From Heptranchias perlo (lineage: Eukaryota), in assembly GCF_035084215.1 (NCBI RefSeq), contig NC_090363.1, forward strand, positions 2,170,001-2,234,000: 64,000 nt of DNA, written 5' to 3'. Made by a program: the position numbers and the translations under genes. The notes below the pieces were generated by a model. It was given only the letters and a program-made list of their open reading frames with translations, was not told the DNA's origin and searched no databases. Shown one piece after another: positions 21,959 to 26,513 of the stretch; position 1 is the stretch's first letter; the number at the start of each line of letters is the position of its first letter.

Positions 21959-22111
21959 CTGAGCGGGGCTGGGTTTAAACATCGACTTCCTCGCTCTGTG
22001 AATCTTCGGTTTCTCCTCCTGTCCCTGGGGAGCGTCCTCCTCCACTCTCACCGTCGAAACCTCACTCCCGGCCCGGCCAATGGTCTCGCTGGGCAGATTC
22101 TTCGCCAAACT
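21959..22111 (-). CDS. EHMT2: EHMT2 duplicated histone-mimic exon, copy 5 (4d)
   Basis: 153 nt, phase 0-0, TAG|AGTTTG acceptor, CAG|GTAC donor. Encodes SLAKNLPSETIGRAGSEVSTVRVEEDAPQGQEEKPKIHRARKSMFKPSPAQ. Confidence 0.85.
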
Positions 22112-22520
22112 CTAAATCCATTGCACATCACAAGAGAATGAAAGGGCAGGGTGAGAGGACTGAACTAGTATCGACTATTGTTAGCTTTGGACTCACATTA
22201 AAAGCACTCATGGGTGCAGTCAAACACACTCAAAGCACGCATACTTTCCCAATGTTCCCTTGATCTAGTTATTATACTAAAATTAAGTGTTATCGGGCGC
22301 TTATAATTGAATGGACGAAATACACAGTTTACACGAGGTAAGCTCCGAAAGCTTGTGATTTTCAAATAAAACTGTTGGACTATAACCTGGTGTTGTAAGA
22401 TTCCTTACATCTTATAAAGTAAGCACTGACAGTCCATTTTTTATTAAACCGTTCTGTTTTAACGGTACGTCACTTGCTGGCAGAAGATCCCCAGTTAGCT
22501 CCCCACCCGATCCTTCGTAC

Positions 22521-22667
22521 CTGACTAATGCTTGTTGCAAGAAGCGATTTTCTTGCTCGGTGAACCTCCTGATACTCCTCCTGACCCTGGACTGTGACCT
22601 CCGTCTCCGCGGCAACCTCGCTGACTGCCCGGCCGGTTGCCATGCTCGCCATCTTCTTTGCCAAACC
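22521..22667 (-). CDS. EHMT2: EHMT2 duplicated histone-mimic exon, copy 4 (4c)
   Basis: 147 nt, phase 0-0, polypyrimidine plus TAG acceptor, CAG|GTAC donor. Encodes GLAKKMASMATGRAVSEVAAETEVTVQGQEEYQEVHRARKSLLATSISQ. Confidence 0.85.
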
Positions 22668-22983
22668 CTACGTGGGAATTAAAGAAGAACGGAGAGTCAG
22701 GGAGGGGTAACGGTGACGACGATGATGATGGTAAGACAAGGGCGGGGGGGGAGGAGGAGGAGGAGGAGGGAGAAGAGGCGGGGTCAACAAGGGGCGGGGT
22801 CAACGAGAAGAGGTGGCAGAGCATTAAATCCTCCCCTTGTAATCCTGTGACAGTAGTACAGGTATATACAGCCCCTCATTTGACACAATTAAAACACCGT
22901 CAGAATTCCCTCCTTTATTTTAGCATTTCTATAACTCGTTCGCCGTGCTGTAGAAGGTGAGTTAACATTCTGTTCCCCCGTAC

Positions 22984-23127
22984 CTGACTAAAGCTGCCTT
23001 TCAGTATGGACTTTCTCGCTCTGTGGATCTCCTGGTTCTCGTCCTGACCCTGGACTGCGCGCTCTGCCTCTGCCGTTCCCCCAGCGGTATCATCGACTGC
23101 CCGTCCAGTAGGCAATCTTGACAAACT
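22984..23127 (-). CDS. EHMT2: EHMT2 duplicated histone-mimic exon, copy 3 (4b)
   Basis: 144 nt, phase 0-0, CAG|AGTTTG acceptor, CAG|GTAC donor. Encodes SLSRLPTGRAVDDTAGGTAEAERAVQGQDENQEIHRARKSILKGSFSQ. Confidence 0.85.
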
Positions 23128-23489
23128 CTGTGTGGAGTTAGGCATATTAGTCACAACAACAACAAAAAAAAAACCACCCAATCAAAGGCATCAGTCAGGA
23201 GGGTGAGTTACTTTGGTGCGCACAGTGACGGACTCTCCACGTTTGGCACCGTGTGCGCACCATATTACACTTCCCTCCACCAAACCGCACCACTGTAACG
23301 CACCGCCTGACTCATCCACGGCCGCTCACGTGTTACAATCACACTGAACAGAATAAAATCCAGGTTTATGCAAGGTAAGAGTCACACTTACTGGAATTTA
23401 CAGTTTTATTCAAACATCTTTCAGTAATTAAAAGGAGCAGTGTACAGCATTTAGGTTAGTGACAGAAGAACTGTTATTGTATTTATAAG

Positions 23490-23930
23490 GAAGAACTTGC
23501 ATTTATATAGCTCCTTTCGCGACCTCGGGACGTCCCAATCCGCTTCACAGCCAATTAAGTACTTTTCGAAGTGCAGTCACTGTTGCAATGTAGGAAATGC
23601 GGCAGCCAATTTGTACCCATCAAGGTCCACAGAAATGTGATAATGGCCAGACCACCTGCTTTACTGATATTGGCCAGGACACCGAGGAGAACTCCCCTGC
23701 TCTTCTTCAAAATAGTGGCCGTGGGATCTTTTACGTCCACCTGAGAGGGCAGACGGTGCCTCGGTTTAACGCCTTATCCAAAAGACGGTACCTCAGACAG
23801 TGCAGCGCTCCCTCGGTACCGGCACTGGGCGTGTCAGCCTTGATTATGGTCTCAAGTATCTGGAGGGGGACTTGAACCCTCGACCTTCTGACTCAGAGGC
23901 GAGAGAGTGCGACCCACTGAGCCACGGTGG
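23490..23930 (-). mobile_element. Deu-domain SINE, near full length
   Basis: Reverse-complement tRNA-like head (CCGTGGCTCAGTGGGTCGCACTC...TGAGTCAGAAGGTCGAGGGTTCAAG), Deu core and L2-like tail. Confidence 0.8.
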
Positions 23931-24676
23931 ACAATGATACCGTGAACACTCTGCCAAAATAGCCTGCACTGATTAAAAATAAGTTTTTAATAAAGGGTCA
24001 AACACTCCAGCCAGCCCAGAGCAGGATGTCATTCATCTATCCGGGCAGCCCAGAGATATGCCCTCCAACAGACTTTGCTCACAAGTCTCAGACTCGCAGA
24101 CGGGGAAAGGGACTCGATGAGCTCCCTGGGGTCTGTTCACCACCCCTTGCTGTCTATCCTCTTACCTTAGACAACCGGGGCGGGCGGGCGGGCGGGCGGG
24201 GGGGGGGCAAAGCAGCAAAGAAATGTGAAATAAAAAAAGGGGTGGGGCCAAATGGCCTGGTTCTGGTTTGGGTCGAGCCGGAGACCCACTCCCTCGTGGG
24301 TCGTGTGATTCGACCGCTCTGCGTTTGGCCGGTGCCCGGTGGGAGAGCGACAAGGCCGGGGAGGAGTGTAAAGGCCGGATGGTGGCGAGGGGAAGCTGGG
24401 ATACTGCTGTGCTTCCAAATCCAGGGCCACGCAAAAACACCTCGGTGGTGGTCAGCCGAGCTGGAACCGAGCTTCGAACAAAACACTTCGAACAAAATCC
24501 CTAACATGCGAGGGAGGGAGCGAGGGAGGGAGCGAGGGAATACAATACATTTTGTTTCCAGTATACTGCTCTTTTAACTGCCGACGCCGCAGTCGGTCGC
24601 CTTTGCTTATTTTAAACATTTCTATAACTCGTTCGCCGTTCTGCAGGAGGTGAGTGAACATTCTGTTCCCCCGTAC

Positions 24677-24829
24677 CTGACTAAAGCTGCCTTTCAGTAT
24701 GGACTTTCTCGCTCTGTGGACCTCCTGGTTCTCGTCCTGAGCCTGGACTGCGCGCTCTGCCTCTGCCGTTCCCACAGGGGCCTGACACGCCCGCTCACAG
24801 GGCATGCTCCCCAACTCCGTTGGCAATCT
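24677..24829 (-). CDS. EHMT2: EHMT2 duplicated histone-mimic exon, copy 2 (4a)
   Basis: 153 nt, phase 0-0, polypyrimidine plus CAG acceptor, CAG|GTAC donor. Encodes RLPTELGSMPCERACQAPVGTAEAERAVQAQDENQEVHRARKSILKGSFSQ. Confidence 0.85.
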
Positions 24830-24944
24830 CTGTATAGAAGTGGGTAAAGGTTACAAAGAATAGCAGATAGCCCAGGATCCTTGGGATAGGAGGTGCGGGA
24901 AAATACAATACAATACTTTACAGTGAAGCGCACTCTAAACCAGT

Positions 24945-25870
24945 TACATCGAGTCTACAGCACAGAAACAGGCCATTCGGCCCAACTGGTCTATGCCGGC
25001 ATTTATGCTCCACACGAGCCTCCTCCCTCCCTACTTCATCTAACCCCATCAGCATATCCTTCTATTCCCTTCTCCCTCATATGTTTATCTGGCTTCCCCT
25101 TAAATGTACCTATGCTATTTGCCTGAACTACTCCACGTGGTAGCAAGTTCCACATTGTCACCATTCTCTGGGTGAAGAAGTTTCTCCTGAATTCTCTATT
25201 GGATTTATTAGTGACCATCTTATATTGATGTCCCTCTAGTTCTGGTCTCTCCCACAAGTGGAAACATTTTCTCTATATCAACCCTATCGAACCCTTTCAT
25301 TATCTTAAAGATCTCTATCAGGTCACCCCTCGGCCTTCTCTTTTCTAATGATAAAAGCCCCAGGCTGTTTAGTCTTTCCTGATAAGGATAACCTCTCAGT
25401 TCTGGTATCATCCTTGTGATTCTTTTTTTTGCTTCTTCTCCAGTACCTCGATATCCTTTCTATAATATGGAGACCAGAACTGTGCACAAGAGTGAGAATG
25501 TTATGGGATGATTTGATTGAGGTTTTTAGGAACTGATAGGGTAGGTAGCGAGAAACTTTTTCCGGTGGTGGGGGGAGTCCAGGACATAACCTTAAAATCA
25601 GAGCCCGGCCACTCGGGAGAGAAGTCAGGGAAACATTTCTTCACGCAAAGGGTGGTAGAAGTGTGGAACTCTCTCCCACAAAAAGCAGTAAACGCTAGCT
25701 GAAGTATTCACTTTAAATCAGAGATCGATAGATTTTTGCTAGCCAAGGGTATTCAGGGATATGAAGTCAAGGTGGGTGGATGGAGTTAGGATACAGATCA
25801 GCCGTGATCTCACTGAATGACGGAACAGTCTCGAGGGGCTGAGTGGCCTCCTCCTGTTCCTAAGTTCCAA
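24945..25870. mobile_element. Two CR1 LINE fragments in opposite orientation (minus ~24945-25490, plus ~25500-25870)
   Basis: ORF-track CR1 C-terminal text on both strands (RPRGDLIEIFKIMKGFDRV; KHFFTQRVVEVWNSLPQKAV). Confidence 0.8.
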
Positions 25871-26253
25871 CAAATTTTTCCCATCTCACACGCCCCACCT
25901 TGCCTTAGATTTAAGGTTAAAACTACCCCTGACCTGGGGGTGATGTTAAACTTCTTTATCTGCTCTGCCCGCAAGGCTTTGTTCCCTGATCATTGGCTCA
26001 TTTGCAACCAGGCGCCAGTAGGATGGAAGGTCAGCCCATGTTGATGGGCTTTTGTTTATTTTGTTGTCCCCACGTTGTGGGGAGAGGGATGGGGGCATGG
26101 AAACTTCCTTTCCTCAGCTCAGTGTTCCTCCTCGTGGCCGCCCGACAAGAGATCGGGCACTCACCGCCGTGGTGGGAGGCAAATGCCCTGCCCAGCGGGT
26201 GATGCCAGCGTGCCCCGCCGTGTGAATCCCACCCCCCGCGGTTCGCTCGGTAC

Positions 26254-26513
26254 CTGACTGATGCCGGGTCTGGATATCGACTTCCGGGCCTTGTGAACCT
26301 TGGGCTTCTCGTCCGGAGCCGGGATCGGCCTGTGTGCCTCCACCGGTACCGCCGCCACCTCGTTGCCGGCCCGTCCCGTCGGCACGCTCAGCAGCTTCAT
26401 GGCCAAACTCTGGATGGAGTTCGGCGACTTGCTGATCCCGGTTAGTGTCATCTTGGCCCTGTTGGCCCCCAGTGCCTTGGTGGGGGAGACGGGGAACGTT
26501 TTGGCAGCATGTC
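26254..26513 (-). CDS. EHMT2: EHMT2 exon 4 (ancestral full-length exon carrying the automethylation motif)
   Basis: 260 nt, phase 1 to 0. Encodes GHAAKTFPVSPTKALGANRAKMTLTGISKSPNSIQSLAMKLLSVP...KPKVHKARKSISRPGISQ, compared with human GHATKSFPSSPSK...RAKMSMTGAGKSPPSVQSLAMRLLSMP...PKVHRARKTMSKPGNGQ. Confidence 0.95.

Follow-up and report, generated by a model that had tools for sequence, protein, structure and literature searches.

The EHMT2 (G9a) gene of Heptranchias perlo raises the question of why a histone methyltransferase should carry the same histone-like motif five times. The window analysed here, a 64-kb stretch of a 3.2-Gb genome (64,000 nucleotides; assembly GCF_035084215.1, contig NC_090363.1, positions 2,170,001 to 2,234,000), contains the N-terminal part of this gene, which lies on the minus strand throughout. 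An earlier note, made from the sequence alone, had pointed to five exon-like units that each carry the motif ARKS, the context of lysine 9 of histone H3 (H3K9), at the place where mammalian G9a has one automethylation site. We find that this array is real, old and lineage-wide in the sharks and rays sampled.

Identity of the gene and its five units

The array gene is EHMT2/G9a, an orthologue of EHMT2 and not of EHMT1. This assignment, already made in the earlier note, was borne out by domain content, by a C-terminal tree, by scores against solved structures (PDB) and by the continuation of the gene beyond the window end, its ankyrin and SET exons being located on contig C42 of the same assembly. 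In detail, exon 4 matches P0001, a partial Heptranchias perlo model in which no Pfam family is found, at 100% identity and 12 other proteins at 67–88%; the full-length ones among these 12 contain the Cys-rich, ankyrin, pre-SET and mostly also the SET domains; in the full-length relative P0016, Pfam places Cys-rich region, ankyrin repeats, pre-SET and SET in one gene. When a relative's SET domain was compared with solved human structures, EHMT2 scored 628 bits and EHMT1 537 bits. In a tree of 15 C-terminal regions, for which relatives were used in place of the window's own C-terminus, the array-bearing proteins clustered with bony-vertebrate EHMT2 (support 100). A separate EHMT1-like locus is present on contig C34 of the same assembly. 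The public model labels P0001 as 'nucleolar and coiled-body phosphoprotein 1-like', which is a misnomer for a partial EHMT2.

The five units were found with the positions and lengths reported before (Table 1), and each of them has an AG acceptor, a CAG/GTAC donor and an open frame that ends in ARKS followed by eight residues. A six-frame scan of the 64 kb detected ARKS at five sites only, all of them in the five units, besides one unrelated ARKT at 51187 on the plus strand. Some details of the original description had to be corrected. HRARKS, claimed for all units, is present in units 2–5, unit 1 having HKARKS; the claimed exon symmetry likewise holds for units 2–5 and fails for exon 4, which is phase 1-0. 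The spacers, described as acidic, are merely mildly so (D+E 6–7 versus K+R 4–5 per 42–45 amino acids), and the N-terminal halves, described as strongly diverged, are not random but derived from the inner part of exon 4. Homology of the units indeed reaches beyond the motif, with 65–73% nucleotide identity between exons, and unit 1 as a query against the genome matched unit 5 at an E-value of 3e-5 and unit 3 at 3e-4. No further degenerate copy was found within the window below an E-value of 0.24 using an nhmmer profile of the five units, and none elsewhere in the genome using units 1, 2 and 5 as queries, a search that was insensitive enough to miss some of the known units.

The region is repeated on a second contig of the same assembly, C669, with 99.2% identity over 9.2 kb, and is most simply explained as the other haplotype; from exon 2 through unit 5 the two versions differ by four exonic substitutions, none of them inside a motif. 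An assembly artefact was ruled out as a source of the array, the units differing among themselves and recurring both on C669 and in 19 other assemblies.

Units 2 and 3 differ at only 2 of their last 97 exon bases, and 56 of the first 60 intron bases are identical, compared with 17–23 of 60 in the nine other unit pairs. The near-identical tract (24617–24773 and 22924–23080, the 3' exon half plus 60 intron bases) is, to judge from this pattern, likely the result of a recent gene conversion; in other species the spacers of units 2 and 3 are distinct from each other. Because of this shared recent tract, the two units are not independent witnesses in this genome. Unit 3 of the window also lacks four residues that are present in all other arrays.

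Distribution and age of the array

Five ARKS were present in 79 of the 80 elasmobranch EHMT2 records obtained, the exception being P0014 with four, which lacks unit 3. The records derive from 20 contigs (20 assemblies) with 18 distinct array sequences, three further cluster members lying outside the count, and represent H. perlo, seven rays and skates (Narcine, Rhinoraja, Amblyraja, Leucoraja, Hemitrygon and two Mobula) and 12 others, four of which were placed in the C-terminal tree, all apart from the rays. In bony vertebrates, 27 of 32 EHMT2 records (coelacanth, two newts, alligator, three lizards, sturgeons, paddlefish and two human SET-domain chains) have a single ARKT and the remaining five are fragments without the region; a single ARKT is also found in all 20 elasmobranch EHMT1 records. 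Since bony EHMT2 and elasmobranch EHMT1 both have one ARKT, this state is ancestral and five ARKS are derived. Mammalian G9a has a single ARKT as well (PMC2175347, PMC8541646; here and below, what is said of cited papers is limited to the parts of them available to us). Chimaera, lamprey, teleost and full-length mammalian EHMT2 were returned by none of the three protein searches behind the comparison set, two of which scored about 8000 candidates each.

No array outside elasmobranch EHMT2 was found in a profile search of 1.84 billion representatives, which returned four elasmobranch proteins and one unrelated sequence and, having missed even single-copy bony EHMT2, is weak for distant cases. 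A search of the ESM Atlas gave no usable match. The unrelated sequence of the profile search, P0079, is a low-complexity one of 240 amino acids with four short ARKS-like tandem repeats (E-value 8e-4), which resembles a translated tandem repeat. In Rhinoraja longicauda, two neighbouring loci (P0012 and P0063) code for almost identical EHMT2 N-termini, both terminating past the array; the pair may represent a duplicate of haplotypes or a true partial copy.

In a tree built from five bony units and the 90 units of 18 elasmobranch arrays (52 columns, midpoint root; P0004 and P0026 were omitted as identical to P0005), the units cluster by position and not by species. Clade support was 99/95 for unit 2, 98/96 for unit 4, 100/98 for unit 5 and 99/83 for units 2 and 3 jointly. 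The clustering by position implies that the array was complete before the split of sharks and rays some 250–300 million years ago. A species-specific expansion is ruled out by the same clustering. The view that the motif is an amplified homologue of the single automethylation site was supported, as the bony units are sister to unit 1 (98/96) and the distance to the donor is equal.

Only a part of exon 4 is repeated, starting from an internal CAG to which the acceptors of the new exons align. The simplest origin suggested by these alignments is one in which the 3' part of exon 4 was duplicated in tandem and the internal CAG was recruited as acceptor. In addition, the serine codons of all five units are TCN, which fits one Thr-to-Ser change before the duplications. 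The single ARKT would thus have become ARKS in the ancestor of sharks and rays, and a segment reaching from within exon 4 through its donor would then have been tandemly duplicated four times, in an order that we infer from the midpoint-rooted 52-column tree. Each duplicate would have taken the internal CAG as a new in-frame acceptor, and the copies would have diverged and become fixed before sharks and rays separated.

Conservation and selection

All 20 ARKS columns are invariant across the 20 assemblies, and the ARK[S/T] core with Arg at -1 is present in all five window units and at 100 of 100 unit positions of these assemblies. The earlier note had named loss of ARKS in relatives as a check; with five ARKS in nearly all records and an invariant motif, the orthologous copies clearly keep it. 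In contrast, among the 17 sequences left after removal of two duplicates and a truncated protein, invariant columns make up 26 of 161 (16%) in the spacers of units 2–5, 12 of 108 in exon 3 and 20 of 66 downstream (Fisher p 8e-12, a value that is overstated since the species are related).

A comparison of the paralogous units of this genome with each other (nine pairs, which are not independent; pair 2–3 was omitted) gave 27 synonymous differences in the ARKS codons and not one replacement, against proportions of nonsynonymous (pN) and synonymous (pS) differences of 0.345 and 0.48 in the spacers. As all differences in ARKS are synonymous, the constraint acts on the peptide and not on the DNA or on a splicing signal. 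Judging from these substitution patterns, the motif is under strong purifying selection.

The flanks that follow ARKS are specific for each position: ISR in unit 1, I[LM]KG in units 2 and 3, variable in unit 4 and MF[KR] in unit 5. A hydrophobic residue at +2 together with a basic one at +4 is the ancestral pattern; unit 4 alone lacks the basic +4 and in rays also the hydrophobic +2. The hydrophobic residue after ARKS, reported as kept in every unit, is thus mostly kept, being replaced in unit 4 of rays by H in five and by G in two of the 18 arrays. The ARKSILK of units 2 and 3 (24677–24712 and 22984–23019) overlaps the [S/G]ILK motif of protein phosphatase 1 (PP1).

Splicing of the array

Eight sequencing runs hold part of the stretch, none of them on record as RNA; four hold 18–19% of its words, which is about the exon share of the stretch. 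X1, X2 and X3 are three runs from one sample, whose RNA status is guessed, and X5 is a fourth run, from another organism, that gave no exon pieces. Exon junctions were read from the coordinates of contig pieces. In contigs of X1, X2 and X3, exon 3 is followed directly by exon 4, and unit 4 by unit 5, with consecutive coordinates, and the contigs then run on, one of them having 3743 nt. Those with the exon 3–4 junction carry 139, 78 and 86 additional bases (X1, X2 and X3); in X1, a variant at 24751, of equal depth (14.7) and 61 bases away from the end of its contig, puts the additional bases of this run in unit 2. Junctions 1–2, 4–5 and 5–next show no branch in the contigs of this one sample, which drop rare forms. 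The bin with unit 3 is covered at mean depths of 9.7, 37.2 and 13.9; the contigs are interrupted at the 3' end that units 2 and 3 have in common and therefore fit a path 2–3–4 or 2–4. As no intronless copy was found in the genome searches, the exon-to-exon contigs indicate spliced transcripts. The extra exons, which the earlier note had proposed to look for in spliced reads, are therefore present in RNA-like contigs of one sample.

The same note had regarded units 2–5 as cassette exons that could tune the valency from 1 to 5. Such a splicing rheostat, in which tissues would set the number of docking sites, would be suited by the symmetric units 2–5 (phase 0-0, multiples of three), by the pyrimidine-poor acceptors of unit 3 (14/25) and unit 5 (15/25) compared with exon 4 (23), by the P0014 model and by contigs that fit both paths alike. 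However, 79 of 80 models have all five units even though up to 9 or more isoforms, differing elsewhere, are annotated for these genes, the exception lacks unit 3 only, and no branch is seen where the contigs cross from unit 1 to 2 or run from unit 4 via 5 onward. Skipping in a sizeable share of transcripts was thus seen neither in the models (1/80) nor at these junctions, and we consider the rheostat very unlikely. The observations argue for a constitutively included array, minor skipping, most plausibly of unit 3, being possible.

A proposed multivalent docking array

By analogy with the two mimics of SETDB1 we propose, with moderate confidence, that the array is a constitutive, multivalent and automethylated docking array for HP1-type chromodomains. 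As at the mammalian site, G9a/GLP would methylate the array lysines, and each methylated ARKS would bind one chromodomain of HP1, CDYL or MPP8. With five sites about 50 residues apart, one enzyme would be able to bind an HP1 dimer by its two chromodomains, or to hold several readers together, thereby raising avidity and the feedback between writer and reader, and phosphorylation of the adjacent serine would release the readers. Units 1, 2, 3 and 5, having the hydrophobic +2 and basic +4, should be full-strength sites, and unit 4 should be weaker or read differently.

Several of these steps have been described in other systems. For mouse G9a, the kinetics of methylation are similar on ARKS and on ARKT peptides, the methylated K239 of the enzyme anchors all three HP1 proteins, and loss of the +4 lysine lowers methylation (PMC2175347). 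A K185me/T186ph switch has been described in G9a (PMC8541646), and HP1 is blocked once Aurora B has phosphorylated the next residue (PMC8541646, PMC9768651). Methylated G9a/GLP peptides are also bound by MPP8, which has a preference for ARK[S/T] (PMC7618375). In SETDB1, two mimics are additive in HP1 binding and needed for heterochromatin spreading (10.1101/2025.01.21.634156), and a second preprint adds two more sites (10.1101/2025.10.22.683908). AlphaFold2 gave a predicted local distance difference test score (pLDDT) of 40 with 472 of 530 residues below 50, which is compatible with disorder, the alignment being shallow (13 sequences).

Several points weigh against the docking array. Paralogue pairs and related species are non-independent samples, so the p value of 8e-12 overstates the case. 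Units 2 and 3 can be kept alike by gene conversion even where selection is absent, and these two units therefore count as less than two independent tests. Conservation of ARKS shows the importance of the motif, neither the identity of its reader nor a joint action of the sites. In addition, the support from splicing comes from three runs of one sample of guessed RNA status, X5 having no exon pieces, and the low pLDDT may reflect the shallow alignment.

More far-reaching is the idea of a pseudo-chromatin fibre on the writer, in which the five methylated tails would nucleate HP1 assemblies and SETDB1-like spreading and the position-specific copies would give a graded combinatorial code, with the ARKSILK of units 2 and 3 as methyl/phospho switches and unit 4 as a divergent site. 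We regard it as doubtful; if true, it would mean a lineage-wide rewiring of heterochromatin feedback and offer a natural valency series (1 versus 5) for avidity models. It is also conceivable, but in our view unlikely, that the copies are specialised or partly incidental, that is, that they were fixed by drift and are now retained individually, for a separate partner or because R-x-R-K-S has a different role (a kinase site, nuclear import, or PP1 docking via the SILK of units 2 and 3) and not for joint avidity. The flank of each position is conserved in its own form, and the number of copies has stayed at five; [S/G]ILK, known both as a PP1 motif and as a site for Aurora B (PMC2845083), occurs at least once in 18 of 20 arrays (absent from P0013 and P0064). 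However, an RVxF motif was found in none of the 20 N-terminal regions, both skates with SIMK twice have no SILK, and SILK alone is insufficient for PP1 binding in KNL1 (PMC2845083). As the hydrophobic +2 and basic +4 are ancestral, SILK could moreover be reached by few changes, and what is invariant coincides exactly with the four residues of the histone mimic.

A decoy or pseudo-substrate, finally, would compete with H3 for the SET or ankyrin domains of G9a, or soak up HP1 or Aurora B, and so damp silencing. The Thr-to-Ser change does give five exact H3K9-like ARKS sites, the Trp-rich segment of the ankyrin domain is conserved, Clr4 is regulated by automethylation of an internal loop (PMC9768651), and HP1 uses one pocket for the mimic and the H3 tail (10.1101/2025.01.21.634156). 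However, automethylation leaves the activity of mouse G9a unchanged (PMC2175347), and ankyrin binding by G9a/GLP requires a diglycine at +3/+4 from the lysine (PMC2887955), which is absent from all five units, making a decoy quite unlikely.

Gene structure and neighbourhood

The EHMT2 exons of the window are listed in Table 1. In the first exon past the array, two one-base indels relative to C669 make the window version run into a stop; C669 and all relatives are open here, and the indels are probably assembly errors. A block of about 3.6 kb with two EHMT2 exons is present twice (9167–12363 and 12565–16158, 97.8% identical with many one-base indels), on either side of an N stretch (12364–12563), and is probably a false assembly duplication.

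Table 1. EHMT2 features within the window
Feature	Position	Strand	Remarks
Coding exon 1 (start codon)	32103–32123	-	read from the window sequence; agrees with start of P0001
Exon 2	28759–28843	-	tblastn; P0001
Exon 3, poorly conserved	27036–27371	-	joined to exon 4 in contigs
Exon 4, ancestral, 260 nt, phase 1-0	26254–26513	-	3' 156 nt (26254–26409) are unit 1, HKARKS
Internal in-frame CAG (Gln codon) of exon 4	26410–26412	-	homologous to acceptor AG of the new exons; five-unit alignment begins there
Unit 2 exon, 153 nt, phase 0-0, HRARKSILK	24677–24829	-	motif scan, contigs, relatives, tree
Unit 3 exon, 144 nt, phase 0-0, HRARKSILK	22984–23127	-	3' part and donor-side intron nearly identical to unit 2
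Unit 4 exon, 147 nt, phase 0-0	22521–22667	-	ARKS invariant; downstream flank variable, no basic +4
Unit 5 exon, 153 nt, phase 0-0, HRARKSMFK	21959–22111	-	motif scan, contigs, relatives, tree
First exon past the array	19883–20005	-	two one-base indels relative to C669

Upstream of EHMT2, two intronless BTB/C2H2 zinc-finger paralogues are located on the plus strand (35379–36677 and 52416–53765), which are presumably ZBTB12-like by synteny. Between them lies an intact open reading frame of 435 amino acids (45748–47052, plus strand) that is CENP-B/Tigger-like (CENP-B_N, HTH_Tnp_Tc5, DDE_1) and possibly a domesticated transposase. A Sushi-domain exon is found at 60548–60682 on the plus strand; together with EHMT2 and the BTB genes it presumably marks a neighbourhood of the major histocompatibility complex (MHC) class III type (complement C2/factor B).

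Comparison with known systems

Histone mimics on methyltransferases may be by-products of proximity or working parts. That a mimic was copied four times and stayed invariant amid drifting spacers argues strongly, on evolutionary grounds, for a motif that works and for extra copies being worth keeping; the finding involves no new chemistry, and the function of the array is one that we infer. The motif, the methyl/phospho switch and methyltransferases with several mimics were known already. The novelty suggested earlier stands in part: with SETDB1, a multi-mimic H3K9 methyltransferase had been described before, but a literature search by title and abstract, covering few subscription journals, found no description of a five-fold, exon-duplicated and lineage-wide array in G9a. 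The array exons already stand, unremarked, in public gene models.

With respect to its origin, the array resembles the 'imprecise' intron gain in which tandem duplication with a latent splice site adds coding sequence (PMC3443670). In both cases a duplicated genomic segment is spliced via a latent site and coding sequence is added; the array, however, keeps the duplicated old donor, only the acceptor being new, and the event happened four times. It provides a clear vertebrate case of new coding exons arising by recruitment of an internal AG after tandem duplication.

With the mammalian G9a/GLP site (human K185 and K205, mouse K239; ARKT) the array has the gene, the exon position and the donor distance in common, as well as the Arg at -1 and, in four of the five shark units, the basic +4. 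It differs in having five copies, Ser for Thr and an exon for each copy, conserved across sharks and rays. The sites of ATF7IP (K16), LIG1, WIZ and CDYL share the ARK core read by chromo or Tudor domains; these proteins are trans substrates, and the available parts of the reports on them describe no exon-repeated array. The difference in valency between human (1) and shark (5) G9a provides, with deletions in between, a series for testing whether avidity for HP1 dimers, CDYL multimers or MPP8 affects residence time and the spreading of H3K9 methylation by G9a.

The closest parallel is SETDB1 (K490 and K1162; K1170 and K1178), which also methylates H3K9 and has several mimics, in its case in unstructured regions. 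Its motifs are dispersed or closely paired and, in the parts of the reports available, not described as exon repeats, whereas the G9a array consists of five homologous units spaced by about 50 residues; in addition G9a, unlike SETDB1, is known mainly as a writer of mono- and dimethylated H3K9 (H3K9me1/2). By this analogy, SETDB1 may serve as a working model for the array in G9a.

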